A stretch of 42,842 nt of DNA from a virus (lineage: Duplodnaviria; Caudoviricetes). Each line of letters opens with the position of its first letter. The stretch's first letter is position 1. The position numbers and the translations under genes are program-made. The stretch lies in IMG/VR virus record IMGVR_UViG_3300012942_000073, positions 1 to 42,842 of that record; one strand, given 5' to 3'. The notes under the pieces were generated by a model. It did no database searches. It saw nothing but the letters and a program-made list of their open reading frames with translations, and had not been told where the DNA came from. Below, piece by piece: positions 2,395 to 42,842 of this stretch.

Positions 2395-2780
2395 CCGGCC
2401 ACGTCTTCCTGCGGCACCTCGACAGCGATGACGGCGAGTTGGAGGTGACGGCGCTCCCGCGCGGCCCGATCGCCATCCATTCCGGCGGCTTCCAACTGAT
2501 CCTGCAGGCCAATGAAGGGCGCGCCCTGGTCCTGGCTGGCATGCAGTGCATGCATGCCGATGATGACGCGGAGCCGTTTCATGTTGCCTTGCTGGCCGGG
2601 AACGCGCTCGAGGTCGATGCGACCCGGAAGTCCGTGGACCCGCGGCTCTGGATCAGCAGCGAAGCCGCCCATTTGTCGGTGCGCTACGGCACCGCGCGGG
2701 CACTGTTCGCCGCGATTTCCGAAGCCTGCAAATGGCTGCGCAAGCATGACCTGCATGCAGGGGAGGGCGGTCGATGCTGA
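2391..2780 (+). CDS. Hypothetical early protein
   Basis: GTGA overlap with the previous gene and GAGG RBS. Confidence 0.6.
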   Translation: MTGHVFLRHLDSDDGELEVTALPRGPIAIHSGGFQLILQANEGRALVLAGMQCMHADDDAEPFHVALLAGNALEVDATRKSVDPRLWISSEAAHLSVRYGTARALFAAISEACKWLRKHDLHAGEGGRC

Positions 2781-3391
2781 ATGCCATCACCCAGCGCCAG
2801 GTCTTCGATCGCTACCTGACCGAGGCCGAGGAGAAGCAATTGCTGGCGCACGTGCGCCGCTCCGCCGACATCCTGGCACGCCGTGATGCCGCCTGGATCG
2901 AGCTGCTGCGCCAGACCGGGCTGCGGATCACCAGCATGGCCAACGTCACCGTGGGCGACGCCCAGGCCGCGCTGCGTGGCAAGCACCTGGTGGTGCGGCC
3001 CGAGCATGCAAAGGGTGGCCGGGGCTATGAGGTGTTCCTCAACAGCCGCGCGCGCGAGAACCTGCGCACGCTGCTCAAGGTACGCGCCGCCATGGGCTAC
3101 GGCCCGCACCCCGATGCCCCGCTGGTCATGAGCCGGAACCATCGCGGCATGAGCGTACGCAGCTACCAGTCGCGCATGGCCATGTGGTGCAACGAGGCCG
3201 GCCTGCAGGTAGCCGCCAGTCCGCACTGGCTGAGGCATACCTTGGCGAAGCGCGTAATGGCGCGCAGCGAGGCGCGCGATCCGCAGGGCATCGTGCAGGT
3301 GGCGCTGGGCCACCGCCACCGCGACAGCACCGTGATCTATACGCTGCCGGACCGCGAGGACATCGAGTCCGCCATGGAGCTGGCCCGGTGA
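2774..3391 (+). CDS. Small tyrosine recombinase (205 aa, catalytic domain only)
   Basis: TGLRI (R), HAKGG (K), HWLRH (HxxR), LGH and IYT (Y) motifs; no N-terminal core-binding domain. Confidence 0.85.
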   Translation: MLNAITQRQVFDRYLTEAEEKQLLAHVRRSADILARRDAAWIELLRQTGLRITSMANVTVGDAQAALRGKHLVVRPEHAKGGRGYEVFLNSRARENLRTLLKVRAAMGYGPHPDAPLVMSRNHRGMSVRSYQSRMAMWCNEAGLQVAASPHWLRHTLAKRVMARSEARDPQGIVQVALGHRHRDSTVIYTLPDREDIESAMELAR

Positions 3392-7116: not shown

Positions 7117-7538
7117 CCAAGATCACCCATCGATTCCCCAACCTGGTCTGGGCGATCAAGGTCGCCATCCTGAACGATTGGCCCGTTCGGGACTTCACGC
7201 AATGGACGCAGGATTACCTGCAGCACGGCGATCGATGCTCCGTTCAGATCGGTGCATTCACGGACGCCATTGCCTGTCGCCTGGGTGTATCGAAAGCGTG
7301 CGCGCGCCGCTGGCTGCATGCCGCCGAAAAAGCCGGCCTGGTGCTGTCGAACCCGTGCCGCGGCGGCTGTACGCGCTGGTGGCTCGTCGGATTCGCCGAC
7401 TACCTGCTGCAACACATGAAGCGCCCCCAGCGTTGCCGCGTCTGCGGCTGCACCAATGAACAAGCCTGCCCGGGCGGATGCTACTGGATCGAATGCGACC
7501 TGTGCAGCGCTTGCGCTGGCTCGGAGCTGCCGTTTTGA
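7113..7538 (+). CDS. Hypothetical protein, possible winged HTH plus C-terminal Cys-rich domain
   Basis: IACRLGVSKACARRWLHAAEKAGLV and CRVCGCT...ACPGGCYW...DLCSAC. Confidence 0.6.
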   Translation: MTKITHRFPNLVWAIKVAILNDWPVRDFTQWTQDYLQHGDRCSVQIGAFTDAIACRLGVSKACARRWLHAAEKAGLVLSNPCRGGCTRWWLVGFADYLLQHMKRPQRCRVCGCTNEQACPGGCYWIECDLCSACAGSELPF

Positions 7539-7683
7539 ACGCCCGCCACGGCAAGCGTATTCGCCGCGGCTCGCTGCCCGAGCGACTGGAATAGATCCCC
7601 CGGCGAGGGCGGCGCACGCAGGACGGCCCGCGCGTGGTCGACCGCCCATCCGCGCATCTTCACCCTGCAAAACGTGGCGGAAC

Positions 7684-10437
7684 ATGGCATCCATTCGAGA
7701 ACTGAAGCAGCGGATCGACCTGCACGACCTGGCTGCCAAGCTGGGCCTGGATCGGCCCGGTGGCGAGCGCGGCAACTACAAGAGCCCGCACCACAAGGAC
7801 AAGAACCCCAGCCTGTCGATCTTCGACGACGGCAAGGCCTGGAAGGATTTCAGCCATGACGCCGGCGGCGACTGCATCAGCCTGGTGCAGTACGTGGAGA
7901 ACATTGCCGACGTGCCCACCGCCATGCGGCGCCTGCACGAGCTGTTCGGCATTCCCTTCGACAAGCCGGACGACCCGCAGCCGCGCCGCGAGCGCACCCG
8001 CGAGGAGTTCCTGGCCGACGCCTGCCGCCCGGAGGCGGCCAAGGCCATCGACTACCTACGCAGCCGCGGCGTGAGCCAGCAGACGGCGGAGTGGGCCATT
8101 GCCCGCGGCGCCGTAGGCTTCAACACCTGGACCAGCGACAAGGTGCCGGCCGGCACGATGGGCCACGGCGGCCCGGCGGTGGCCTTCATCTGCCGCGACT
8201 ACCTGCACCACCAGGTGCGCGCGGTGGACTTCCGCTACCTGGATCCGTCCCTCAACGGCGACATGAAGACCAAGAGCCTGGGCCAGAAAGACGGCCAGCC
8301 CTGGTTCGTGGACCGCGGGCACATCCACCGGGCGCGGCGCATCTATCTGTTCGAGAGCGCCATCAACGCGTTGTGCGCCGAGGCCTGCGGGCTGCACGGC
8401 GCCGCCGCCATCGCCATCCGCGGCACCGGCAATGCGGCGAACATCGACTGGCGTTTCCTCGCCGGCAAGCAGGTGGTGATCTGCATGGACGCGGACCTGC
8501 CGAACGACAAGGGCGAGCGCCCGGGCGACAAGGCCGCGTGGCAGCTCTACGACCAGCTCACCGCGCTGAACATCGGCGCGCTGATGGTGGACCACAAGGA
8601 ATGGTACGAGCTGGGCCTGAACGATGCGGCGGACATCGCCGAGAAGCGCGGCCTGGACCACTTGCGCAGCATGCTGGAGACGCTGGAGCCCTGGGCCATC
8701 CCCGGCATGCCCGGCGCGGACATGCCGAACGGCCGCAACCGCCTGTACCTGCCGGCCCACGACTTCGGCGTGTACTGGCGCTTCCGCGTGAAGCCCGACT
8801 TCACCAGCTTCGTCAGCAAGCTGGAGAAGAACGAGGACGGCGGCGCCGACGTGCCCACGTTCGAGGACCTGTGCGGCTTCCGCGTGGCGGCGCTGAGCCG
8901 CGTCACCATCCAGAGCTACACCGCCACCATGACCGGCGAAGAGGACGCCGAGCCCAACGTGGTGTTCGCGGTGAGCGTGCAGACCGCGCGGCACGGTGCG
9001 CGCCTGGTGCGCCGGGTGTTCGGCGACGAGAAGCTGCACAACATCGAGCACTGGAAGAAGCTGGGCCCGGTGTTCAACCAGAGCCGCTTCCTGCGCATGA
9101 TCACTGTGCTGGAACGCGGCGCCGAGCTGGGCGCGCGCGACGCGATGAACTTCGTGGGCCTGGCCTGGCGCAACGGCCGCCCCACGGTGAACGAGGGGCC
9201 GGACTGCTACTTCACCGAGCCGGAGAAGCAATGCCCCTATGCCCGGCTCAGCTTCCCGCGCGGGCCGGTGGACGACGCGCGCCGCGTGATCGAGGCCTAC
9301 CAGGGCACCTTCCGCGACAACGCCGCCGCGCAGTTGCTCACCTGGGCGCTGGGCGGCCACCTGAAGGCCTTCCTTGGCTACTGGCCGCACATGATCGTGC
9401 AGGCCAAGAAGGGCAGCGGCAAGAGCACCCTGATCAAGCGCCTGGAGCGCACCGTGGGCATGACCATGTTCGGTGGCCAGAGCCTGCAGACCGAGTTCCG
9501 CCTGCTCACCAGCGTGTGCCACACCAGCCACCCGATCGGCTGGGAAGAGATCTCCGCCCGGCGGCAGGACGTGATCAACATCGCCGTGGCGATGCTGCAG
9601 GAGAGCTACCAGTACACCATGACGCGCCGCGGCGCGGACCTCACCGAGTTCCTGATGTCGGCGCCGGTGCTGCTGGCCGGAGAGGATGTGCCGGTGCGCA
9701 GCCTGACCGGCAAGGTGGTACGCGCCGACCTGTCCGGCCGCAAGGGCCCGAAGATGCCGGAAAGCCTGCCGCGCTTCCCCGTGCACGGCTGGCTGCAGTT
9801 CCTGTCCGGCCTGACCCGCGACCAGGTGCAGTTGCGCCTGACCGAGTGGGAGCAATGGTGCTGGGACGGCTGCCGCGCGCGGCAGGGTGACGAAGGTGCC
9901 AGCCGCATGGTGGCGAACTACGCCGCCCTGGCGCTGAGCTGGAGCCTGCTGTGCGAGTTCGCCGGCCTGGCGCGCGAGGCCGGCGGCTTCCTGCGCGACC
10001 TGCGCGCCGAGATGAACGCCCACATCGCTCAGACCAGCGGCGACCGGGAGCCGTGGGTGTGGATCCTGGAGACGGCCTTCAGCGAGATCGAGGCGCACCA
10101 GTTCCTGCACCCCTACGACTTCGACCTGATCGGCGAGGAAGAGGTGCTGATCCTTCGCCCGCAGCACGTGATGGACCACATCAGCACCACCAACCGGCTG
10201 CGCGAACAGTGGAACGGCCTGCCGGTGAAGAGCGGCCGCGTGTTCAAGCGGCAGTTGGACGACGCCGGCGTGATCGTGAAGGACGAACTGGACCGACGCA
10301 TCGGCCAGCGCCGCCACGCCCACCTCACCGCGCTCAGCCTGCGCAAGCTGGCCGAGTACGGCCTGTACGTATCCAAACCCGACGCCGCCAGCTCCTCCCT
10401 GCCGTGGGAACGGGGCGGCGCCAGCCACGACGACTGA
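7684..10437 (+). CDS. Primase-helicase replication protein (degenerate CHC2-like ZBD, Toprim, P-loop NTPase)
   Basis: SPHHKDKNPS...WKDF...GGD; Toprim LFESAIN and CMDAD; Walker A AKKGSGKST; Walker B-like IGWEE. Confidence 0.85.
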   Translation: MASIRELKQRIDLHDLAAKLGLDRPGGERGNYKSPHHKDKNPSLSIFDDGKAWKDFSHDAGGDCISLVQYVENIADVPTAMRRLHELFGIPFDKPDDPQPRRERTREEFLADACRPEAAKAIDYLRSRGVSQQTAEWAIARGAVGFNTWTSDKVPAGTMGHGGPAVAFICRDYLHHQVRAVDFRYLDPSLNGDMKTKSLGQKDGQPWFVDRGHIHRARRIYLFESAINALCAEACGLHGAAAIAIRGTGNAANIDWRFLAGKQVVICMDADLPNDKGERPGDKAAWQLYDQLTALNIGALMVDHKEWYELGLNDAADIAEKRGLDHLRSMLETLEPWAIPGMPGADMPNGRNRLYLPAHDFGVYWRFRVKPDFTSFVSKLEKNEDGGADVPTFEDLCGFRVAALSRVTIQSYTATMTGEEDAEPNVVFAVSVQTARHGARLVRRVFGDEKLHNIEHWKKLGPVFNQSRFLRMITVLERGAELGARDAMNFVGLAWRNGRPTVNEGPDCYFTEPEKQCPYARLSFPRGPVDDARRVIEAYQGTFRDNAAAQLLTWALGGHLKAFLGYWPHMIVQAKKGSGKSTLIKRLERTVGMTMFGGQSLQTEFRLLTSVCHTSHPIGWEEISARRQDVINIAVAMLQESYQYTMTRRGADLTEFLMSAPVLLAGEDVPVRSLTGKVVRADLSGRKGPKMPESLPRFPVHGWLQFLSGLTRDQVQLRLTEWEQWCWDGCRARQGDEGASRMVANYAALALSWSLLCEFAGLAREAGGFLRDLRAEMNAHIAQTSGDREPWVWILETAFSEIEAHQFLHPYDFDLIGEEEVLILRPQHVMDHISTTNRLREQWNGLPVKSGRVFKRQLDDAGVIVKDELDRRIGQRRHAHLTALSLRKLAEYGLYVSKPDAASSSLPWERGGASHDD

Positions 10438-10450
10438 AAAGGAGACGATC

Positions 10451-10885
10451 ATGCTCACACTGCAAACCCACCCCGATGGGCGCCTGGACATCCACTTCGA
10501 TCCGAAGGGAGCCGGCGCGGACACCGCCACCCACGTCACCATCAGCGCCGCGCCGCCGCGACTGGAATGGAGCCCGACGCTCTGCGACGGCAAACAGGTC
10601 GACCAGGAAGAGGCCCGAAAGGCATGCGCCGCGCTCGGACCCGGCTGGGATCTGCCGGAGCGGATGGAGTTGGAATCTATCCTCGACCTGAAGCGCCATG
10701 ACCCTGCCGTCGACACGTCGCGCTTCCCCGACACCAAGAGCACCTACTACTGGACCAAGACGGACTGCGCGTGGTCTTCGGACGGCGCGTGGGTCGTCGG
10801 CTTCGACCTCGGCCACGCCAGCCACGCCCACCGCGACTACGAGGCTTGCGTCCGGGCGGTTCGGCGCGTGCCCGCCGGTCAGTAA
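10451..10885 (+). CDS. DGR target 1, DUF1566/Lcl CLec-fold protein (144 aa)
   Basis: GWDLPERMEL, YYWTKT, AWVVGF..G, VRAVR; VR1 at the 3' end. Confidence 0.9.
   Translation: MLTLQTHPDGRLDIHFDPKGAGADTATHVTISAAPPRLEWSPTLCDGKQVDQEEARKACAALGPGWDLPERMELESILDLKRHDPAVDTSRFPDTKSTYYWTKTDCAWSSDGAWVVGFDLGHASHAHRDYEACVRAVRRVPAGQ
10769..10879 (+). repeat. DGR variable repeat VR1
   Basis: 111 nt; 13 mismatches to TR, 12 of them at TR adenines. Confidence 0.95.
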
Positions 10886-10920
10886 CTTTGCCTTTTTGCC
10901 CTTTCTTTCAGGAGATCACC

Positions 10921-11307
10921 ATGAATCGATTCATCGACAACGGCGACGGCACCGAGACCGACAGCGTCACGGGCCTCATCTGGACCAAGGCGACCGTCGC
11001 CAAGGATGTCACGCACAAACAGGCCGCTGCCGCCGTCAAGAAGCTGAGTGTGGCCGGCCATAAGGACTGGGACCTACCGACCGTGGAGGAGCTGTTCCCG
11101 CTTGCCGATCGCTCGCGCAAGCTGCCGGCGATCGACACCGACGCCTTTCTCGACACCGAGAGCGACCTGTACTGGACCAAGACCGACAGTGCGTGGTCTT
11201 CGGGCCACGCGTGGGTCGTCGGCTTCTACTACGGCCTCGCCAGCCACTACCACCGCGACGACAAGGCTTGCGTCCGGGCGGTTCGGCGCGTGCCCGCCGG
11301 TCAGTAA
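10921..11307 (+). CDS. DGR target 2, DUF1566/Lcl CLec-fold protein (128 aa)
   Basis: RFIDNGDGT.TD.VTGLIW, GHKDWDLPTVEEL, YWTKT, VRAVR; GGAG RBS; VR2 at the 3' end. Confidence 0.92.
   Translation: MNRFIDNGDGTETDSVTGLIWTKATVAKDVTHKQAAAAVKKLSVAGHKDWDLPTVEELFPLADRSRKLPAIDTDAFLDTESDLYWTKTDSAWSSGHAWVVGFYYGLASHYHRDDKACVRAVRRVPAGQ
11191..11301 (+). repeat. DGR variable repeat VR2
   Basis: 111 nt; 10 mismatches to TR, all at TR adenines. Confidence 0.95.
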
Positions 11308-11328
11308 CTCGGCCTTTCTGATCTGATC

Positions 11329-11766
11329 ATGTCGAATCCTCTGCCGCCCATCGCCACGGTCGCCATGCGCCTGCTCCTTGACATCGAGCGGGCGGTGCGC
11401 GGCTTCTCGCGATACGACAAGTCCACCCTGGGCGTGGATCTGCGCAAGCAGGCCATGACCGTGGTGCGCGTGTGCCATCGCGCGTGGCGGGACCGGGCAA
11501 GCCAGGCGTATTGGATCGAGCAGCTCGTCTGGGAGATCGACGAGGTCAAGCTCAGCCTGCAGTTGGGCAGCCAGTTGCGCGCCTTCGCCAGCTTCCGGCA
11601 GTTCGAGGCGCTCATCCGGGTGGCAGAGGAGCTGGGCCGCCAGGCCGGCGGCTGGAAGCGTAAGCAAGTCCCCCAGGGCCAGAATCCGGCACTCGATGCG
11701 GCGCCGGAGCGTGCCCAGATACTGAGTACCCGTGACGCCTCTGCCTGCGTAGGGGCCAAATCATGA
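11329..11766 (+). CDS. avd: DGR accessory variability determinant (four-helix bundle)
   Basis: FSRYDKSTLGVDLR...ELGRQAGGWKR pattern; located between the targets and TR/RT. Confidence 0.85.
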   Translation: MSNPLPPIATVAMRLLLDIERAVRGFSRYDKSTLGVDLRKQAMTVVRVCHRAWRDRASQAYWIEQLVWEIDEVKLSLQLGSQLRAFASFRQFEALIRVAEELGRQAGGWKRKQVPQGQNPALDAAPERAQILSTRDASACVGAKS

Positions 11767-13139
11767 CGAGGGCGCGCTACTCCACATCGAGCTGTTCGCC
11801 GGGATCGCAAGTTCACGGGGATGCGTGGTCTTCGGACAACGCGTGGGTCGTCAGCTTCAACAACGGCAACGCCAACAACTACCACCGCGACAACAAGGCT
11901 TGCGTCCGGGCGGTTCGGCGCGTGCCCGCCGGTGAGTATCAGGGGACAGGCGCCGAGGACGTGTCCTTGCGCGCCTTGCATGACGCCTGGCGCGCTGCGC
12001 GCCGGGGAAAGAAGCCGAGCACCGACCAGCTGGCGCTCGACGCACGCTGGGCGGACCACCTGCTGCATCTGCAGCGCGAATTGCAACGTGGCACTTGGAA
12101 GCCTCGCCCCAGCACCTGCTTCGTAGCCAACGGAGCCAAGGCGCGGGAGATCCATGCGCCGGCCGCCATCGACCGTATCGTGCATCACTGGGCAGTGCCG
12201 AAGCTCGAGGTGATCTGGGAGCCGCGCTTCATCTCGGACAGCTACGCCAACCGCAAGGGCAAAGGCAGCCATGCCGCCGTGCGCCAGGTGCAGCGGTTCG
12301 CGCGTCAGGTGCAGAGCGGCCAGGGCGGCGGCTACTTCCTGCAGCTCGACATCCGCAACTTCTTCAACTCGATCCACCGGCCCACGCTATGGGCCATCCT
12401 GAAGTCCGTCATGCAGCGGCACGACGTACCAGCGGTCGTACAGCACGCCATCCATGCGCTGCTGCGCCGGCCGCCACTGAGCGCGGGTGTGCGCTACTTC
12501 GGCCGCCCCGAGGACTTTGCGCTGGTGCCACCGCACAAGCGGCTGGCGAACGCGGCGCCAGGCTGCGGTCTGCCGATTGGCAACCTCAGCTCGCAGTTGT
12601 TCGCCAACATCTATCTGGACCGCCTGGACCAGTTCGTGAAGCACGTGCTGAAAGCACGGCGCTACGTCCGCTACGTCGACGACTTCGTCCTGGTCCATCA
12701 CGACAAGGCCGTATTGGGGGACTGGAAGCGGCAGATCGAGGTGTTCCTTGCGCGTGAGCTGCGCCTGCAACTCAAGGACGAAGGAGTACTCAGGCCGCTC
12801 ACGGACGGCATCGACTTCCTGGGCTACGTAATCCGGCCCACCCACACGCTGGTGCGCCGTCGCGTCGTCGCACACGCCCGCGCCGCACTGGCGGCCTGGG
12901 AGCGCCGGCACGTCGCGGCAGGCGCCTTTCACGTGACACCGGAGGATCTGCATCAGGTGCAATCCATCGCCGCCAGCTATGCCGGCCATTTCCGGCATGC
13001 CAACAGCTTCCGACTGCGGCAATCCCTCCACCGCCGCTTCCCGTGGCTGCATGCCGCCACGAGGCGCCGCCGATTCCATTACACATCAATGCATCGACAC
13101 ATCTCAATTGGATTAGCCATAAAGAAAGGGAATACGTGA
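11763..13139 (+). CDS. DGR reverse transcriptase (ORF includes TR in frame)
   Basis: KAREIHA..AIDRIVH, DIRNFFNSI, GLPIGNLSSQLFANIYL, YVRYVDDF, GIDFLGY. Confidence 0.95.
   Translation: MTRARYSTSSCSPGSQVHGDAWSSDNAWVVSFNNGNANNYHRDNKACVRAVRRVPAGEYQGTGAEDVSLRALHDAWRAARRGKKPSTDQLALDARWADHLLHLQRELQRGTWKPRPSTCFVANGAKAREIHAPAAIDRIVHHWAVPKLEVIWEPRFISDSYANRKGKGSHAAVRQVQRFARQVQSGQGGGYFLQLDIRNFFNSIHRPTLWAILKSVMQRHDVPAVVQHAIHALLRRPPLSAGVRYFGRPEDFALVPPHKRLANAAPGCGLPIGNLSSQLFANIYLDRLDQFVKHVLKARRYVRYVDDFVLVHHDKAVLGDWKRQIEVFLARELRLQLKDEGVLRPLTDGIDFLGYVIRPTHTLVRRRVVAHARAALAAWERRHVAAGAFHVTPEDLHQVQSIAASYAGHFRHANSFRLRQSLHRRFPWLHAATRRRRFHYTSMHRHISIGLAIKKGNT
11823..11933 (+). repeat. DGR template repeat TR
   Basis: Seven AAC codons and 21 adenines in total, followed by a 36-nt adenine-free GC-rich 3' segment identical in both VRs. 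Confidence 0.95.
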
Positions 13140-13426
13140 CCCGCCATAAAGCGCGCCCGAAGAGGCAATACCCCAAGCCGCCGCCGGCGCCGAAGCCGCG
13201 CCCGGCGCGCGGCGGCCTGGAGGACCTGGTCACCGACCATGCGCTGGTGCGCTACCTGCAGCGCGTGGTCGGCATGAATATCGACGACCTGCGCCGGCAA
13301 CTGGTCAGCGACGGCCGCGCCACGGTGATCCGGCAGATCGAGTGCGGCCGGTTGCGCCTGAGCGACGGCCTGGTGCTGGTGGTGAAGGGCGGCAAGGTGG
13401 TGACGGTTCTAGCTGGCGATGACTGA
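13136..13426 (+). CDS. Small hypothetical protein coupled to the RT stop
   Basis: GTGA overlap; VTDHALVRYLQRV...VVKGGKVVTVL, reminiscent of DUF4258/RelE-like small folds. Confidence 0.65.
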   Translation: MTRHKARPKRQYPKPPPAPKPRPARGGLEDLVTDHALVRYLQRVVGMNIDDLRRQLVSDGRATVIRQIECGRLRLSDGLVLVVKGGKVVTVLAGDD

Positions 13427-13442
13427 GTGTCGTGGTCATGCC

Positions 13443-13477
13443 TTCCCCTTGACCGCGAGCCCCGTGCCACACACGGT
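13443..13477 (+). promoter_or_regulatory. Putative late promoter 1 (terminase operon)
   Basis: TTCCCCTTGA-N17-CACACGGT. Confidence 0.7.
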
Positions 13478-13485
13478 CCCGCAGC

Positions 13486-14427
13486 ATGGGAAAGCTGCGG
13501 CCGCGCCTCGATGAAGTCCGTTTCCACTGCCTCGACTGCGACTACCGCTTCGTGGCTGCGCCGGCGCGCGTGGATGATGCGCCGGAAGACGAGTGGCACC
13601 CCTGGCGCTATTTCGCCGAATGCCCGGCCTGCGGCCGCGAGGCGCAGCAGGCGCGGAACGAGCGCGCCCTGCTGAAGGCCTGGGCCCGGGCCACCGGCCC
13701 GCGCACGCCGGAGGGCCTGGCCGCCGCGGCGAAGAACCTGGAAGGCCACCCCACGCCGGAAGAGGCGCGCCGCACGCGCTTCAACGCGCTGAAGCATGGA
13801 CTGACCGCGCGCACGGCCACCTACTGGCCGGCGCGGCCCGGGCGCTACCCGGACTGCGACGGCTGCGAATACTTTGCCGACTGCTTCGGCGCCACCGCCT
13901 GCCAGAAGCGGGTGGACCTGTATTTCCAGCACCACCTGGCCTTCGAGCTGGGCGACCCGAAGCTGCTGAACGAGCAGAACGCCGACCTGCAGGCGAACCT
14001 GCGGGCGATCATCAACCTGATGATCCTGGACGTGATCAAGGACGGCGCCACCGCCCGGGCGCCGGCCTGGTACTACGACAAGGACGGCGGCTTCCACCTG
14101 GCGCAGTACATGGACGAGTCCGGCAACCCGCAGACCATCACCGAGCTGCGCGAGCACCCGATGCTGAAGCGCATCGGCGAGTGGGTGGCGCGCATCGGCC
14201 TGTCCCTGTCCGACATGGGCATGACGCCGAAGGCGCGCGAGGACAGCGAGGAGGTGGCCGGCTACCTGGCCGGGCAGAAGCAGCGGCAGGAGAACCTGCT
14301 GGAGCACCAGTCGCGCCAGACCGCCGCACTGGAGGGACTGGCCGCGCTGATCGAGCGCAGCCGCCGCAACGCCGAGCGCGACCCGGTGCTGATCGAGCAC
14401 CAGCAGCAGGGCGGCACCGATGCTTGA
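13486..14427 (+). CDS. Putative terminase small subunit with zinc fingers
   Basis: CLDC, CPAC and CDGC motifs; TGPRTPEG...RFNALKHGL; first gene of the packaging operon. Confidence 0.55.
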   Translation: MGKLRPRLDEVRFHCLDCDYRFVAAPARVDDAPEDEWHPWRYFAECPACGREAQQARNERALLKAWARATGPRTPEGLAAAAKNLEGHPTPEEARRTRFNALKHGLTARTATYWPARPGRYPDCDGCEYFADCFGATACQKRVDLYFQHHLAFELGDPKLLNEQNADLQANLRAIINLMILDVIKDGATARAPAWYYDKDGGFHLAQYMDESGNPQTITELREHPMLKRIGEWVARIGLSLSDMGMTPKAREDSEEVAGYLAGQKQRQENLLEHQSRQTAALEGLAALIERSRRNAERDPVLIEHQQQGGTDA

Positions 14428-14872
14428 ACTGCGACCTTGCACCCTCAAGGATGCCGCCGCTTTCGTGGCGCAGCACCACCGGCACCATGCGCCGCCCCAT
14501 GGCGCCCGGTTTGCCATCGCCTGCATGGCCGCCGGCGAGATGGTGGGCGTCGTCATCGTGGGCCGACCGGTGGCGCGTGCGCTGGACGACGGCACTACCG
14601 CGGAGGCCGTGCGGGTCTGCACCTCGGCCGCGGCACCGCTGGGAACCTGCAGCAAACTGCTGCGCGCGGCATGGCGCGCCTGGTCGGCCATGGGCGGCCG
14701 TCGGCTGGTGACCTATACGCTGGCCACGGAGAGCGGTGCCAGCTTGCGCGGCGCCGGCTTCATCCTGGATCGTGTAGTGCCGGCGAAGACGTGGGACTGC
14801 CCCTCGCGTCGGCGGCAGCGCCGTGCGATCGACGTCGAGCCGAAGGCGCGGTGGATGGTGTGCCGTGCCTGA
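14420..14872 (+). CDS. XF1762-family (Mom-like, GNAT-fold) putative DNA-modification protein
   Basis: FVAQHHRHH, VGVVIVGRPVARALDDG, CSKL..AAWRA, LVTYTL..ESGASLRGAGF. Confidence 0.7.
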   Translation: MLELRPCTLKDAAAFVAQHHRHHAPPHGARFAIACMAAGEMVGVVIVGRPVARALDDGTTAEAVRVCTSAAAPLGTCSKLLRAAWRAWSAMGGRRLVTYTLATESGASLRGAGFILDRVVPAKTWDCPSRRRQRRAIDVEPKARWMVCRA

Positions 14873-16436
14873 GCGCATCTCCCGCGCCGAGCGCTACCGC
14901 CTGCAGAGCGTGGCCGAGCGGGAGGTGATGCGCTACGCCGGCGACCATGCGCTGTGGCACAAGCACGTGCACAACGTGGAGCTGGACCCGATGCAGGTGC
15001 TGAAGTGCATCGAGATGGACCGGCACCCGAACACCGTCGACTTCAGTTGCCGGCGCACGGGCAAGACGGCGGTGAAGGAGATGTACAACCTGGAGAAGCT
15101 GGCGACGAAGCCGGACCAGGAACTGGGCATCGTGGCGCCGCGCGAGGCGCAGAGCCTGGTGAACCTGAATTATCACCTCGAGGCGATCCGCCGCAGCCCG
15201 ATCCTCACCGCCTGGCTGAACATGCGCAGCGGCCGGCAGCAGATGGCCGACACCTACTTCCAGTTCGCCAACCGTTCGCTGGCCCGGGCCTACGGCATCA
15301 TGGCCAACGTGGACGGCGGCGACCTGACCATGGCCAGCCTGGAAGAGGTGGACGACATGCCGCGGGACCGGCTGTACGGCCGCTTCCTGCTGATGATGGG
15401 CTCCACTCGGCGCATGGGTGCCAGCAGCGACAGCGAGAACACGCCGGAGATCCGCATCACCGGCGTGTTCAAGGGCGCGGACACGCTGGCGGAGATGATC
15501 GCCGGCGGCCAGTACACGGTGCTGCCCACGGTGGACGTGCACCTGGGCATCGAGCTGGGCATCCTCAATGCCGCGTTCATGGAGCAGATGCGGGCGGAAC
15601 TGGACCCGGACGAGTACATCCGCCAGTTGCTGTGCCGGAACATCGCCAGTCGCAACCTGATCTGGCAGAGCAAGGTGCGCGAGGCGATCCAGCTCGGCCT
15701 GCGCGCCGGCCTGGAGCAGGCCGAGCCGATGCCGGGCGCGCGCTACCCGCGCCGAGGGCTGATCAGCTTCGGCTACGACGCGGCCGGCCACGGCGAGAAC
15801 CCGGCCGCCTCGAAGCACGCCTTCGTGGTGGCGGAGCAGATCGGCAACTTCATCTTCATCCCGTTCGTGAAGTTCTGGCCGGCCGGCACCGGCGAGCCGG
15901 AGGTGCAGCGCGACCTGGTGGCGTTCTGGCGCTACTTCCGGCCGGACTATGCCATCGGCGACGCCTTCGGTGTGGGCATGCTCACGGCGCTGAACGACGA
16001 GCTGTTCCGCGAGGGCCTGACCGACATCGACCGCCGCGCGATCGGCGACGGCGAGAGCACGGCCAGCACTTGGACGGAATGGGCCTTCAGCCCGATGCGC
16101 TTTGAGGGCATGACCAAGCACCAGATGGCCACCGCGCTGCGCAGCGTGTTCCACGGCGGCCATGCCGTGCTGCCGTACTTCGACGACCAGGACATGCGCG
16201 ACCCGGCCACCCTGGACCTGCGCGCGCTGGCGCGGCAGTTGCCGAACATCGTGGCCAAGCCCACCAAGACCAGCTACGCCAGCTACAAGATGGCGAACGG
16301 CAAGCTGGGCGACGACGGCTTCGACGCGGCCATGGCCGCGGTATGGGGCCTGGCCACGCGCGGCACGTCGCACGCGCCCACCGTCATCCTCACCACCACC
16401 CGCACGCGCGAGCAGTTGCTCGAACGCGCCGCCTAG
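14865..16436 (+). CDS. terL: Terminase large subunit
   Basis: Walker A variant SCRRTGKT, LEEVDD, and nuclease-domain motifs GYDAA and DDGFDA. Confidence 0.85.
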   Translation: MPERISRAERYRLQSVAEREVMRYAGDHALWHKHVHNVELDPMQVLKCIEMDRHPNTVDFSCRRTGKTAVKEMYNLEKLATKPDQELGIVAPREAQSLVNLNYHLEAIRRSPILTAWLNMRSGRQQMADTYFQFANRSLARAYGIMANVDGGDLTMASLEEVDDMPRDRLYGRFLLMMGSTRRMGASSDSENTPEIRITGVFKGADTLAEMIAGGQYTVLPTVDVHLGIELGILNAAFMEQMRAELDPDEYIRQLLCRNIASRNLIWQSKVREAIQLGLRAGLEQAEPMPGARYPRRGLISFGYDAAGHGENPAASKHAFVVAEQIGNFIFIPFVKFWPAGTGEPEVQRDLVAFWRYFRPDYAIGDAFGVGMLTALNDELFREGLTDIDRRAIGDGESTASTWTEWAFSPMRFEGMTKHQMATALRSVFHGGHAVLPYFDDQDMRDPATLDLRALARQLPNIVAKPTKTSYASYKMANGKLGDDGFDAAMAAVWGLATRGTSHAPTVILTTTRTREQLLERAA

Positions 16437-19054: not shown

Positions 19055-19089
19055 TTCCCCTTGACTCCCCGCGCCGACCCGCACACGGT
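19055..19089 (+). promoter_or_regulatory. Putative late promoter 2 (capsid operon)
   Basis: TTCCCCTTGA-N17-CACACGGT. Confidence 0.7.
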
Positions 19090-26925: not shown

Positions 26926-27180
26926 ATGGCCCAAGCCACCAGCACGCCCGTCGCCGTCATCCCTGACGAACCCCTCGAAAGCCTCGGCGCCAGCCTGCGC
27001 TGCATGGACGCCGAATCCATGCAGTTGGAGACCATCATGGAGTTCCTGCAGGACCAATGCGGGGACAACGTGACCGCCATCACTTTCATGCTGCAGCCCC
27101 ACCTGACCCAGTTGCGGGGCGAGGTGGAGGCCATGCTGGTGCACCTGGACGAGATGAAGAAGCGCAGCGCTTCCCATTGA
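26926..27180 (+). CDS. C4-controlled small protein (84 aa)
   Basis: GAGGA RBS overlaps the antisense target. Confidence 0.7.
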   Translation: MAQATSTPVAVIPDEPLESLGASLRCMDAESMQLETIMEFLQDQCGDNVTAITFMLQPHLTQLRGEVEAMLVHLDEMKKRSASH

Positions 27181-27205
27181 AAACCGTGCAGCCGCGGCAC
27201 ACGGT
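27171..27205 (+). promoter_or_regulatory. Putative late promoter 3 (tape measure operon)
   Basis: TTCCCATTGA-N17-CACACGGT. Confidence 0.7.
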
Positions 27206-37411: not shown

Positions 37412-37446
37412 TTCCCCTTGATCCCCTCGCGGCGCCTGCACACGGT
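37412..37446 (+). promoter_or_regulatory. Putative late promoter 4 (lysis operon)
   Basis: TTCCCCTTGA-N17-CACACGGT. Confidence 0.7.
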
Positions 37447-39194: not shown

Positions 39195-39475
39195 CTATTG
39201 ATGCAACTGATTGATTCACTATCAATTTTCCTTACCGTGTCGCTGCCTGAAATTCCACGTTTTCAGGCCAAACTTCCACGTCATCGTTTATACATTACAC
39301 GCCGCCTATATCTTTCTTTCTTTCATAAGTAATTGAAGAAGAAGGAAGAAACAGGCATGCAAGGGAATATGCGGTTCCACGGAATGGAACAACCGTTCGA
39401 TCATGGGTTCCACGGTTTTTCCGGAACCTGAATGGGTTTCGTGGAATCCCATGGAACTGTAAGTCATTGACTAAA
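39195..39475. other. Origin-like AT-rich region with iterons and IHF-like sites
   Basis: TTCCACG at 39253, 39274, 39375 and 39408, inverted at 39440; YAANNNNTTGA boxes at 39204, 39326 and 39460. Confidence 0.55.
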
Positions 39476-39519: not shown

Positions 39520-40632
39520 GTGCGCTGCGTGTCCCCTACCCTCAATACCCCCGATTTCAATGGTCTGGTGAACGATTGGCTGATCTGGCTGCGCCAGAAT
39601 CGCGGGCGATCGGTGGCCACGGTCGACGCCTATCAGAGTGCGCTGGCCAGGTTGTCGCAATGGTGTCGGGAGCCTCCGACTGAGGCACATCTACAGGCGT
39701 CTACGCGGGATCCGCTGAGCCTGGGTCTGGAAGACCTGGAACGCTTCACCGGCATGATCTGCCACCATCAAGGTCTGAGTGCCCGATCGCGGCGCGTGGT
39801 GGTCTCGGCAGTCCGCGGCTTCTACGCCTGGGCCGCGGCGAAGCAAAAGGTGACGCACAACCCAGCCGCGCAATTGCCCTATCCGCGGGCCGGCCGGCGG
39901 CTGCCTCGTATCCTGGCGCTGGACAACGCCGACAAGCTGCTGAGGCAGCCCGACCTGGGCACGTTTCGCGGCCTCCGCGACGCCGCAGTGATGGCGATGC
40001 TGATGGGCACAGGCCTGCGCATCTCCGGTTTGGTGCAGCTCAATGAGTCGGCGCTCATTTGGACGGAGTTCGAGGGCCGGGACGAACTGGTGCTACGAGT
40101 GACGGAGAAGGGGGAGAAGGAACGCATGCTCCCCGTGCCACGCGAGGCGGCACTATTACTGCGCGCATATCTCGGGCATCCCGATTTGGCCGAGATCGAT
40201 CGCGCGCTCACCTCGGGCGATAGCGTGCTGTTCGTCTCGACACGCAACCACCTGGTGCCGCCCTGGGACTATCGCGGCGAGGCCCGGCGCCTGAGCGAGT
40301 ACGGCGTGCGGGATCTGTTGCACCGTCACGGGCGTCGCGCCGGCATCCCTGACGATCAGCTCAACCCCCACGCTGTCCGTCATCTCTACGGCACGGAGTT
40401 GGCCGAGAGCGACGTGGACCTGCTGCAACGCCAGTCGCTGCTGGGGCACGCCTCGCCCGATAGCACGGCGATCTACACGCACCTGGCGATGCGAAAGATG
40501 CGCGAGACCGTGCGCAAGTCGAACCCCTTGGGCAAGTTGCGCACGCCGCTCCTCGATGACCTGCGGCGACTGGATGCCGCCGCGCAGCCTCGACGCGTTT
40601 CCAGCGTCTCCACTGGGCCTGATAAATCATGA
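39520..40632 (+). CDS. XerC/D-like tyrosine recombinase (370 aa)
   Basis: SAM-like N-terminus, TGLRISG, EKGEKER, HAVRH, LGHA, IYTH. Confidence 0.9.
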   Translation: MRCVSPTLNTPDFNGLVNDWLIWLRQNRGRSVATVDAYQSALARLSQWCREPPTEAHLQASTRDPLSLGLEDLERFTGMICHHQGLSARSRRVVVSAVRGFYAWAAAKQKVTHNPAAQLPYPRAGRRLPRILALDNADKLLRQPDLGTFRGLRDAAVMAMLMGTGLRISGLVQLNESALIWTEFEGRDELVLRVTEKGEKERMLPVPREAALLLRAYLGHPDLAEIDRALTSGDSVLFVSTRNHLVPPWDYRGEARRLSEYGVRDLLHRHGRRAGIPDDQLNPHAVRHLYGTELAESDVDLLQRQSLLGHASPDSTAIYTHLAMRKMRETVRKSNPLGKLRTPLLDDLRRLDAAAQPRRVSSVSTGPDKS

Positions 40633-41291
40633 AGCCCGTAGCCCCCACCACCCCGAAACCGATACAGGGCGGTGCCTGCGCGACCTGCCATAAATCGCCT
40701 AAAAAGCGGGCAAAGTCAGTTGCTCCAGATAACTGCGCATACTCAGATAAAGCGCAGTTGGGAGCCGCCGCCACCACGATCCAACAAGGGCTTACCGGTG
40801 CTACGAACGGAGAGAAGCGCAGTTTGGGAAGCGGAATCGATCACAGTGGCGAATGCGAGCAGGTCTCGATCACAGGGGGTGGGGGGTCGGCAAGGCCGCC
40901 CCGCCGCTTGGCGGCGGGGGGTGGGTACCTGGATATCTGCAATGGGGCATCGACGCCGTTGGGCGCGCCGCTGGCGCCGGCGCCGGACCCGCGTTTGGCC
41001 GAGCTTCGCCGCGCCGGCCTGCCGCAGCCTTGGCCACGTGTGGCCGCGTCGCTGGGCTACGACACGTTTATGGAGGTCTGGCAGGCGTTGGCCACCGTCG
41101 ATGGCGCCGACAGCCGCCGTCGCGTAGTGCTGCCCAAGATCCAGCCCTATCTGCGGCACCAGCGGAATCTGCTGATCCGCTCCATGGGGAGCCAAGGCCT
41201 CAGCGCCGAAGAAATTCGGCGCCAGTTGCTCGAACGCGGCTGTGAAGCGCCGACCGTATCTCACATCAACAAACTGCTGGCCGAGGCCTAA
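40629..41291 (+). CDS. Putative Mor/C-like late transcription activator (true start may be downstream)
   Basis: C-terminal VAASLGYDTFMEVW...VVLP...RNLLIRSM..GLSAEEI...HINKLL resembles the Mu Mor/C layout. Confidence 0.55.
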   Translation: MKPVAPTTPKPIQGGACATCHKSPKKRAKSVAPDNCAYSDKAQLGAAATTIQQGLTGATNGEKRSLGSGIDHSGECEQVSITGGGGSARPPRRLAAGGGYLDICNGASTPLGAPLAPAPDPRLAELRRAGLPQPWPRVAASLGYDTFMEVWQALATVDGADSRRRVVLPKIQPYLRHQRNLLIRSMGSQGLSAEEIRRQLLERGCEAPTVSHINKLLAEA

Positions 41292-41298
41292 ATACCAG

Positions 41299-42842
41299 AT
41301 GGCCGACATCACCGCGATCATCTATGCACGCGTCAGCGACAGGAAGCAGTCCGAGCAGGACGTCTCCGTGCCGACGCAGATCGAAATCGGGCAGCGCAAA
41401 GCTTCCGAGCTGGGTGCCCGCGTGTTGCGCGTCTTCGTCGACGATGGCAAGAGCGCATGGAAGGAGCAGAACAGGCGCCAGTTCGAGGCTGCCGTGGACA
41501 TGGCCACTAGCATGGAGGCCACCTACTTCATCTGCTGGGACTCGGCACGATTTGCCCGCAACAAGTACGAGTCGATGATCAATAAGCGGCTGCTGGACGA
41601 TGCCGGCGTGGAGCTGGTCTATATCTCCACACCCATCGACCGGAACACGGACATGGGCTGGGCCATGGACGGTGTCCTGGAAATCTTCAACGAGTTGACC
41701 AGTCGACGGATCAGCGCCGACACCCGGCGATCGATGATGCGCAATGCACGGCTGGGCTACTGGGTTGGGGGGCGCGCGCCGTTCGGCTACACCTCGGAGC
41801 CTGCGCCGGACAATCCTAAGAGGCGGAAGCTGGCCCAGAACCCGGAAGAGGCGCCGCTGGTGTTGGAAATCTTCAGGCTACGCGGCGAGCGTCTACTGGG
41901 TGCCTTCCAGATTGCGGCGGCGCTGAACGCCAGGAAGTCGCTGCGTCGCGGCATGCCCTGGACGAAGCAGACGGTGCTCAACCTGCTGCGCAATCAGGCC
42001 GCGATCGGCAACATGGTCTTCGGCCATCGCAGCCGTTACCTGAAGGGCGACAAGGACAACATGATCGTGGTCCCCAGCCACGAGGGCATCGTGCCTCTGG
42101 CGTTGTGGGAGGCCGTGCAGGAAACGATGGATGAGGCGGCGGACATCACCAAGGCCTCCGGCTCGCCCAAGTCCACCCACGCATTCACCGGCATCCTGCG
42201 CTGCAAATGCGGCTCCAGCATGCAGATCGAGACCAGCCGCAGCGGCAGCGGAAAGATCTATTTCTACTACCGCTGCAAGCGGAGCATGCAAAACCGCGAA
42301 TGCGAACCGCGGCGCGTGCGGGCCGACCTACTGGACGATTGGCTGTCGGACTACATCCTGCAGAAGATCCTGAGCCGCTCAGCCATTGAGGAACTGGTGC
42401 GCCTGATGGAAGAGGAGGCGGGTAGTTGGGCCGTGGATCATCGCGTGCGCCGGAACCAGGTGCTGACCAGGATCAGCAAGCTGCAGGAATCGAACGAGCG
42501 GCTGTACTCCCTGTTGGAATTGCACGGGAAAGATGCACCGAACCTGGGCGACTTGACCCAGCGCCTACGCGGCAACAATGCAAAAGTGCGCCTGGCCGAG
42601 GCCGAGCTGGAGGCCATCGATGCGGAGCAGGCGCCTGTCTCGCTGGACCAGGGCGACGTAGATGACCTTGTCGAGTTCCTGCACGCCCAAATGAAAAGCG
42701 CGGACCACGCCAAGCGGGCCCGCGCCTTCTATAAGAACTTCATCTCCAGCGTCGTGCTGGATGGGGCTGAGTTGGTCATCAACTACAGCCCGTCAACCCT
42801 GTTGAGCCCGAAGGATGTGCAGAGTAGACAAACATGGCGCCC
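41299..42842 (+). CDS. Large serine integrase, no stop codon within the window
   Basis: IYARVSD catalytic Ser, DSARFAR, GGRAPFGY, zinc ribbon LRCKCG...YYRC, coiled coil; absent from the ORF track because it lacks a stop. Confidence 0.93.
   Translation, partial: MADITAIIYARVSDRKQSEQDVSVPTQIEIGQRKASELGARVLRVFVDDGKSAWKEQNRRQFEAAVDMATSMEATYFICWDSARFARNKYESMINKRLLDDAGVELVYISTPIDRNTDMGWAMDGVLEIFNELTSRRISADTRRSMMRNARLGYWVGGRAPFGYTSEPAPDNPKRRKLAQNPEEAPLVLEIFRLRGERLLGAFQIAAALNARKSLRRGMPWTKQTVLNLLRNQAAIGNMVFGHRSRYLKGDKDNMIVVPSHEGIVPLALWEAVQETMDEAADITKASGSPKSTHAFTGILRCKCGSSMQIETSRSGSGKIYFYYRCKRSMQNRECEPRRVRADLLDDWLSDYILQKILSRSAIEELVRLMEEEAGSWAVDHRVRRNQVLTRISKLQESNERLYSLLELHGKDAPNLGDLTQRLRGNNAKVRLAEAELEAIDAEQAPVSLDQGDVDDLVEFLHAQMKSADHAKRARAFYKNFISSVVLDGAELVINYSPSTLLSPKDVQSRQTWR
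42834..42842. repeat. att core, right copy (ATGGCGCCC)
   Basis: Identical to 1-9 and lies inside the 3' end of the serine integrase ORF. Confidence 0.75.

Follow-up and report, generated by a model that had tools for sequence, protein, structure and literature searches.

A diversity-generating retroelement at the end of a phage replication operon, with two small lectin-fold targets of predicted intracellular action

Overview

The soil phage (Caudoviricetes) represented by IMG/VR record IMGVR_UViG_3300012942_000073 carries an intact diversity-generating retroelement (DGR) beside its replication genes. The window analysed here is the whole record of 42,842 nt. The genes of the element follow the order of two Lcl_C/DUF1566 targets (144 and 128 aa), avd, the template repeat (TR) and the reverse transcriptase (RT). 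Judged from sequence context, the two targets very probably act outside the virion. Binding of host defence proteins is the best single mechanism, put forward tentatively on the basis of that context and of one gene fusion in a relative. The layout itself is already catalogued, as B1/CLec2/d1 by Wu 2018 and as 'non-structural/unknown' by Roux 2021. The novelty implied by a preliminary description of this DNA was too high, as Wu 2018 Table S1, Roux 2021 and Benler 2021 all precede it. New here are the map of late-promoter motifs, a sister phage free of the cassette, the early placement of related cassettes, the pair of target paralogues and a fusion to the Acb4 family.

Template, variable repeats and retroelement proteins

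In established DGR biology, as worked out for phage BPP-1, RT and Avd copy TR RNA, making mistakes at adenines, and each variable repeat (VR) is then replaced by the resulting cDNA. The TR of the present element (11823..11933, + strand; 111 nt) contains 21 adenines and lies in frame within the 5' end of the RT ORF. VR1 (10769..10879, +) differs from it at 13 positions, namely 12 TR adenines and a T>G change at 10826 that the preliminary description had missed. The 10 mismatches of VR2 (11191..11301, +) are all at adenines. The adenine counts given earlier for both repeats are therefore correct, and 22 of the 23 mismatches in total fall at TR adenines, a bias expected by chance with probabilities of 9e-10 (VR1) and 7e-9 (VR2). 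The previous estimate of 4^21 DNA variants also holds (4.4e12), and corresponds to approximately 2.3e12 protein variants per target over 13 variable residues. A third VR is absent from both strands of the window, where the next best match covers 54% of non-A positions; this bears out the statement that no tail gene ends in a VR copy. Matches in a profile search of the window were limited to Target 1 (T1), Target 2 (T2) and the TR-bearing RT frame.

VR1 ends in an IMH-like sequence (10877..10898, +; GGT-CAGTAA ... GCCTTTTTG), the TR counterpart of which is GGT-GAGTAT. From the sequence, we infer an IMH role for this end, and ends resembling it are found after most of the related targets compared. 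No GC hairpin follows either VR (folding z -0.27 and -0.14), and the TR RNA folds no more strongly than its shuffles (z -0.56). The accessory gene avd (11329..11766, +; 145 aa) matches PHROG 3206 Avd at E 6e-17 and scores below the curated cut-offs of Pfam and NCBIfam. Its stop is overlapped by the start of the RT ORF (11763..13139, +; 458 aa including the TR-coded part; RVT_1 E 6e-14, PHROG 1423 E 7e-101), in which the motifs GLPIGNLSSQ and YVDD, the latter at 12672, are intact. No VR variants occur in contigs of the likely source run, and contigs drop rare variants. The amino-acid bias of the VRs was rejected as a sign of selection, because RT context effects could yield the same pattern.

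The two target proteins

T1 (type A; 10451..10885, +; 144 aa) consists of an N-terminal beta-hairpin, a linker and an Lcl_C C-type-lectin (CLec) fold. T2 (type B; 10921..11307, +; 128 aa) is the bare Lcl_C fold. As described previously, both are stand-alone DUF1566 proteins: PF07603 Lcl_C is the sole Pfam domain of each (E 7e-18 for T1, 1e-26 for T2). The AlphaFold models have pLDDT values of 87.7 (T1; approximately 67 in the hairpin region) and 93.2 (T2). The T1 model aligns with the Lcl CTD structure 8Q4E (VIA Z 12.0, rmsd 4.3, 104 aligned), which is also the Foldseek match of T2 (E 1.5e-6). The VR forms the C-terminal part of the CLec fold in both predicted structures; Tyr, Gly, Ser and Asp are abundant among its residues, and Arg is scarce. 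In simple scans, neither protein has a lipobox and the maximum 19-residue hydropathy is 0.38 for T1 and 0.44 for T2, in agreement with the earlier view that signal peptide, lipobox, transmembrane segment and fibre domain are all lacking. A tblastn search of the phage collection gave no match to T2.

Position within the phage genome

The element starts 13 bp after the stop of the primase-helicase gene (7684..10437, +; PHROG 5629, Toprim, CHC2 zinc finger), exactly the gap first reported. Contigs from runs X2 and X7, with joints at 10447->13137, define a clean replacement: where the present phage has the cassette block (10448..13136, +), a sister phage, approximately 99% identical upstream on the primase side, carries 2,339 bases of different sequence. 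The right flank of this slot is a 96-aa gene (13136..13426, +; PHROG 8252) that follows the slot in relatives too. Among 13 related contigs that extend from primase to TerS, just one has DGR genes in the slot. This distribution, together with the cassette-free sister, indicates that the targets are accessory.

A predicted late-promoter motif occurs in four exact copies, all of them 3' of the DGR. Copy 1 (13443..13477, +; TTCCCNTTGA-N17-CACACGGT) precedes the small terminase gene, and is found at the same site before TerS in loci L093-L097. The motif search placed the other copies before the head protease/capsid gene (19055..19089, +), the tape-measure gene (27171..27205, +) and the lysis genes (37412..37446, +). 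None is present 5' of the DGR, even with 3 mismatches allowed. The claim that the element lies upstream of the first late promoter thus fits the predicted motif map, and the distance of about 19 kb to the tail-tip genes is also accurate: the first of these starts at 32058, 18.9 kb past the RT. The genes from cro to RT lie on a single strand with gaps of at most 35 bp, save two of 209 and 145 bp. A scan of positions 7300-15000 gave no sigma-70 promoter, and terminator-like sites were about as frequent as expected by chance. Deep TR-like pieces in RNA run X2 were rejected as evidence of expression; they belong to another DGR and are deep in DNA runs as well.

Related loci

A repressor, recombination, methylase, integrase or transposition gene lies within 4 kb of the cassette in 41 of 43 mapped related loci. 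The survey of relatives called for earlier thus returned the same early-gene placement, and it does so across Mu-like and lambdoid backbones as well as that of the present phage. All five isolated phages examined have such a cassette among the same kinds of genes. The present cassette is 77% identical in nucleotide sequence to that of a Mu-like phage (L006) over 2,523 nt. Related targets (n = 98) are all 106-245 aa long, and no lipobox was found in the 91 checked. In the near-identical loci L037 and L038, a PHROG 'minor tail protein' label lies 2 kb from a target, which counts against the explanation favoured below. The analysis covered the related loci other than low-GC L015, L044-L046 and L048, and L075-L085. 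A profile search of representatives gave 57,223 matches, swamped by multi-repeat cellular proteins, and such proteins likewise dominated a search for longer homologues. The RT of KS5 was rejected as a relative, since according to its authors it is not a DGR.

The closest pair of cassettes, L006 and L007, differs at 40 positions in 2,650 nt. The VRs hold 32 of these, every one at a TR adenine, which indicates that the lineage is active. Two or three intact targets are present in 43 of 46 related loci with sufficient flank. The targets comprise two divergent paralogue types, A and B, kept paired in 26 of 30 loci. Intact, paired targets with conserved cores point to selection on the proteins. Type A was rejected as a single clade: the tree (72 columns, among them those used for classification; 56 rows from loci with both types) needs three changes, at least two of them forced by well-supported branches.

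One piece of direct comparative support for an anti-defence role may come from a fusion. The related target L055:1159-1896 combines a PF13876 domain (E 1e-30) with its diversified domain, and a further fusion of PF13876 to the same lectin domain occurs in P0070. PF13876 is the Acb4 anti-CBASS family (bioRxiv 2024.12.30.630793), and new anti-defence proteins have been discovered through fusion to Acb4 (bioRxiv 2025.07.12.664507). The fusion is rare (one of 30 long targets scanned, one of 59 DGR loci), and none of 80 stand-alone Acb4 loci has such a lectin gene nearby. The PF13876 part of L055 matches Acb4 structure 9E4W weakly (E 0.008), and by our own mapping only three of nine alignable ligand residues are identical. 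The same lectin domain is also joined to unnamed mosaic domains, so fusion may reflect shared early-gene neighbourhoods. Acb4 is absent from the window, and the window's own targets are not fused.

Comparison with known systems

The closest described arrangement is that of Wu 2018 (PMC5758913; B1, TG-TG-AVD-TR-RT, CLec2, d1), which has the same gene order and a stand-alone DUF1566 pair in Proteobacteria. In the accessible part of that source, 18 of 20 rows of this gene order in Table S1 are proteobacterial CLec2/d1, a Rhodanobacter entry likewise has no stem-loop, and early-operon placement, paralogue types and function are not given. Judged from its text, clade 3 / PC_00009 of Roux 2021 (PMC8144416) is similar in comprising proteobacterial prophage DGRs with non-structural or unknown targets; PC_00009 is a mixed cluster that includes a membrane-bound Legionella target. 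Burkholderia phage Magia and vB_E192a, QDWS, LPPA56 and Haboob resemble the present phage in combining a pair of short targets with avd, TR and RT, amid recombination and integrase genes; their RTs are only 37-41% identical to the present one. The Magia paper (PMC7883833) names genes 47 and 57 as targets, to which the present analysis adds gene 46.

The BPP-1 element (mtd-avd-TR-brt) has the core parts, the adenine-specific changes and the CLec fold in common with the present DGR (Mtd comparison: Z 8.2, rmsd 2.8, 107 aligned). Its single target, however, is a virion protein of 376 aa, whereas two of 128-144 aa are found here; the RTs are 30% identical, and the GC-rich hairpin 3' of the VR in BPP-1 has no equivalent. 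Nor is there a large, late tail-fibre target of the BPP-1 type, the element being 19 kb from the tail tip and 5' of all late motifs. Legionella LdtA/Lcl-type surface targets are marked by a signal peptide, lipobox or membrane anchor, unlike the present targets, which in simple scans have no lipobox and hydropathy of at most 0.44. The second DGR target of Quimbyvirus (Benler 2021, PMC8008677) is also non-structural, with phage-host conflict proposed, but this is a Bacteroides phage with an additional tail target, which the present DGR lacks. Acb4 is neither a lectin fold nor diversified, in contrast to the present targets. No functional study of this DGR class was found in the openly accessible literature.

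Proposed mechanism and alternatives

The preliminary description took the targets to be early, non-virion, cytoplasmic proteins. Promoter motif, operon continuity, replacement in the sister phage and placement in relatives argue for this, and it is retained as a prediction from position. Early, accessory and small, the targets would resemble anti-defence proteins, early expression being read from gene position. Early operons also house superinfection and host-takeover genes, which counts against a counter-defence reading. The element at the end of the replication operon has rewritten adenine positions of two lectin-fold genes, and it is possible, at somewhat short of an even chance, that the products bind host defence proteins. 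The proposed course is as follows. (i) Induction or infection would set off transcription of the DGR as part of the cro-CII-primase operon, and diversification would hence coincide with genome replication. (ii) The targets would be made early and remain in the cytoplasm, each with a variable face of 13 residues. (iii) T1 and T2 may have distinct, non-redundant jobs or assemble jointly. (iv) Selection would favour variants with a chance affinity for a defence protein in the next host. (v) Once those proteins are bound, the phage could get past them.

The same early placement would suit binders directed at other phages or mobile elements, acting in superinfection sensing or exclusion or in prophage interference. 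Relatives L018 and L036 have a remote target close to the CI repressor, at a distance of one or two genes, and the accessible text of PMC10907252 proposes cellular DGR targets as invader sensors. Such a role is nonetheless unlikely: the cassette has no effector gene, neither target matches PADLOC, and an operon in which the cassette sits 3' of the primase would be expected to be repressed in a lysogen. Neighbouring replication and recombination genes, and movement of the cassette among unrelated backbones, could instead reflect an adaptation of intracellular development to new host species, in which the targets bind host proteins with housekeeping or regulatory functions, such as proteases, RNA polymerase or replication factors. 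We consider this quite unlikely, as such partners change slowly and continued rewriting of 13 residues would mostly ruin a working interface. The Acb4 fusion would also accord with targets that serve as variable sponges, taking up small nucleotide immune signals in a pocket between subunits; the domains commonest in Acb4 fusions proved to be sponges (bioRxiv 2025.07.12.664507). The known signals form a small set, however, greatly outnumbered by approximately 1e12 variants, and the composition of the VR residues seems unlike a phosphate-binding pocket, which makes sponges highly improbable.

The adhesin-type fold (Lcl CTD, Bdellovibrio Bd2740 CTD, invasin, Mtd) would be explained if the targets were small virion modules for adhesion or tropism, synthesized early and then, like Mtd in BPP-1, mounted on the tail tip or the head. 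The low-confidence N-terminal hairpin modelled for T1 could dock on a partner, PC_00009 may hold unknown structural proteins according to Roux 2021 (PMC8144416), and a host-range role is suggested in the Magia paper (PMC7883833). Yet the DGR has no late motif on its 5' side, the sister phage lacks the cassette, the Acb4 fusion indicates the cytoplasm, and myophage Magia, a Mu-like phage and the present backbone offer no obvious common docking site; virion attachment has an equally low probability to that of housekeeping binders. Patchy occurrence, clean replacement and the shortened RT of L104/L118, fused to methylase-like sequence, would also be compatible with a compact mutagenic cassette that is for the most part neutral or selfish cargo, carried along in early slots that tolerate it, and whose targets are of little use at present. 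The intact, paired and conserved targets make this very unlikely.

Significance

Receptor switching is the sole experimentally shown function of a phage DGR according to Benler 2021 (PMC8008677). The present class is widespread among proteobacterial temperate phages, and its targets are very small natural scaffolds (approximately 120 aa) that tolerate 13 variable residues. The locus should aid testing, given its natural cassette-free sister, its clear map of predicted late promoters and the isolated phages with a like cassette. If the targets act intracellularly against defence, inhibitors would evolve by programmed hypermutation, which would bear on how phages keep pace with variable bacterial immunity. 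A more far-reaching and doubtful idea is that proteobacterial temperate phages share a mobile two-gene 'antibody library', in which a DGR diversifies type A and type B proteins that form one binder with two faces, each varying independently, to neutralize previously unmet defence proteins early in infection. Were this true, it would amount to adaptive counter-defence through targeted hypermutation.

Organization of the cassette

The element is a genuine diversity-generating retroelement (DGR). Its virus record is 98% complete (CheckV) and represents a temperate tailed phage, with a CII-like regulator, primase, terminase and portal, genes for the tape measure and lysis, and integrases. Target 1 (T1, 10451-10885) begins 13 bases downstream of the primase stop, as the preliminary description had placed it. 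Target 2 (T2, 10921-11307), the accessory gene avd (11329-11766) and the reverse transcriptase (RT) frame (11763-13139) follow; the last contains the template repeat (TR, 11823-11933) in frame. The variable repeat of T2 (VR2) differs from TR at 10 positions, 10/10 at adenines (chance 7e-9), the number already claimed. VR1 differs at 13 positions; the 12 adenine substitutions reported earlier are present (chance of adenine bias 9e-10), together with one non-adenine difference that had been missed. No further VR was found across the window, in keeping with the earlier remark that tail genes do not end in one.

The targets were correctly described as stand-alone proteins: each is a single Lcl_C/DUF1566 domain with 13 variable residues. 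The best structural match for both AlphaFold models (pLDDT 87.7 for T1, 93.2 for T2) is the Legionella Lcl C-terminal domain, and the T1 model carries an extra N-terminal beta-hairpin of low confidence. In the model DGR of Bordetella phage BPP-1 a hairpin follows the VR, whereas 3' of VR1 and VR2 such a hairpin is absent and a short conserved end is found instead.

In 51/52 related loci the TR region and the RT share one continuous open frame, and in 43 an ATGA start sits at the end of avd. In the window (11763-11955) and in related loci L006-L060 the TR lies in this frame at the RT 5' end; usually the frame has a start that overlaps the avd stop and a conserved MTxPRY..GC leader. In the database protein P0007, a type A target (defined below) continues in frame into an RT, as if the VR-to-TR DNA had been deleted; this could be an assembly artefact.

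A class of DGR with short targets

The window DGR joins a class already known in print. The layout is catalogued in Wu 2018 (PMC5758913), including rows of its Table S1. Targets of clade-3 prophages are given as non-structural or unknown in Roux 2021 (PMC8144416), Benler 2021 (PMC8008677) suggests a part in phage-host conflict for a target that is not structural, and short targets are remarked on in the announcement of Burkholderia phage Magia (PMC7883833). No functional test of this class was found in the literature searched. Magia gene 46 (MT701587; L002:5903-6367) bears a hypothetical annotation; it too is a DGR target, with 11 changes at adenines.

Eighty related IMG/VR loci were collected and 69 analysed; RT identity is at least 50% in 54. 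In 46 loci enough DNA upstream was available to count targets: 36 carry two, seven three and three one, and all 98 related targets measure 106-245 aa. Two of these loci, L006 and L007, differ at 40 positions in 2,650 nt; 32 lie in VRs, 32/32 opposite TR adenines. A survey of these loci, of the kind proposed earlier for homologous prophages, bears out the shared placement: an early-type gene lies within 4 kb in 41 of 43 mapped loci (243/581 gene clusters scanned). In two near-identical loci a gene labelled 'minor tail protein' stands 2 kb off, within a CI-to-integrase operon. Five isolated phages, from 103 records with an RT match, were examined, and 5/5 carry the same two-target cassette, with recombination, integrase or methylase genes around it.

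The targets fall into two types, assigned from two second-helix positions, with 15/91 unclassified. In type A an Arg follows LPT, and a strand-rich N-terminal extension is often present; in type B the Arg or His comes ten residues further on, and Asp usually precedes the WYW motif. T1 clusters with A-types from other phages (support 100/98), apart from T2. Type A does not form a single clade in the tree. Once five near-duplicates among the loci and a frameshifted reading are set aside, 30 loci have two targets that could both be classified, and 26 of these hold one A and one B (shuffle mean 16; as high in 2/20,000). Shared descent of the cassettes inflates this count, so the pairing shows that two divergent paralogues have been kept together for a long time, and does not show that they bind each other.

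Position relative to late genes

The motif TTCCCNTTGA-N17-CACACGGT has exactly four copies in the window: at 13443, 5' of the small terminase (TerS); at 19055, 5' of head protease/capsid; at 27171, 5' of the tape-measure gene; and at 37412, 5' of the lysis genes. It spans 35 bp with a fixed 17-bp spacer and is conserved among related phages. Because it was defined from these same copies, its weight comes from conservation in L093-L097, five related loci with the motif 5' of TerS, four of them also 5' of the protease. It is probably a late promoter. As the preliminary description held, the DGR lies upstream of the first predicted copy, which is beyond the RT end; no copy with up to three mismatches was found upstream of the DGR, and at four mismatches scattered weak matches appear, one within the primase. 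A weak fifth copy (four mismatches) stands at 39461, 5' of the tyrosine integrase.

The DGR does not fall under this late motif. Genes from cro through the one after the RT share one strand, and the gaps are at most 35 bp with two exceptions, 209 bp downstream of cro and 145 bp upstream of the primase; one small gene entered this tally with an incorrect start. An internal promoter may serve the DGR.

An exchangeable cassette

Contigs from sequencing runs X2 and X7, which may derive from one campaign, resemble the window closely on the left side and join its positions 10447 and 13137 with 2,339 other bases between; the X2 contig differs from the window at 31 positions in 3,448 nt left of the slot. 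A sister phage therefore holds different cargo exactly at the DGR position. The stretch from primase to TerS is covered by 13 distinct related contigs. DGR genes fill the slot in one of them (L104), and in another (L097) an RT lies 5' of the primase; slot contents elsewhere are paired HNH-like genes, a methylase and small genes of no assigned function. In L008-L010 the RT lies immediately 5' of TerS. Over 2,523 nt the window cassette shares 77% identity with the one in the Mu-like phage L006, where it sits after gam; the cassette has therefore moved between backbones.

Further features were seen. A second variable slot lies at 13420-13464, where 1,072 other bases separate the 96-aa gene from the late motif in the sister phage. 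In L104 (6152-7627) and L118 (909-2384) the RT is truncated at about residue 190 and joined in frame to sequence that by eye is Dam-type-methylase-like; it occupies the same primase-terminase slot, with targets and avd intact. A Mom-like DNA modification gene (XF1762 family, 14420-14872) is inserted between small and large terminase and is missing there in close relatives. Three recombinases were noted: at 39520-42842 a tyrosine integrase, a 220-aa protein of no assigned function and a large serine recombinase stand in tandem, and the early operon adds a catalytic-domain-only short tyrosine recombinase (2774-3391). In several relatives this tandem block lies between primase and terminase.

Possible function of the targets

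One remote target (L055:1159-1896) offers a possible link between this class and counter-defence. It fuses Lcl_C to PF13876, the family of the anti-CBASS sponge Acb4 (bioRxiv 2024.12.30.630793), and its VR, in two segments, has 16 adenine changes and none elsewhere. P0070, known from protein with no DNA context found, has the same domain pair at 45% identity. A new sponge family was itself found through fusion to Acb4 (bioRxiv 2025.07.12.664507); 'lectin' and 'DUF1566' are absent from the main text of that report, whose supplements may list such fusions. Against a counter-defence role by this link, however, the fusion occurs in 1/59 DGR loci, a lectin-type gene lies near 0/80 stand-alone Acb4 loci, L055 retains 3/9 alignable Acb4 ligand residues, and the same domain is also joined to other unnamed domains.

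The targets are predicted, with high confidence, to be non-virion proteins that act early and in the cytoplasm. Binding of host defence proteins would be the best single mechanism, a tentative prediction that falls a little short of an even chance.
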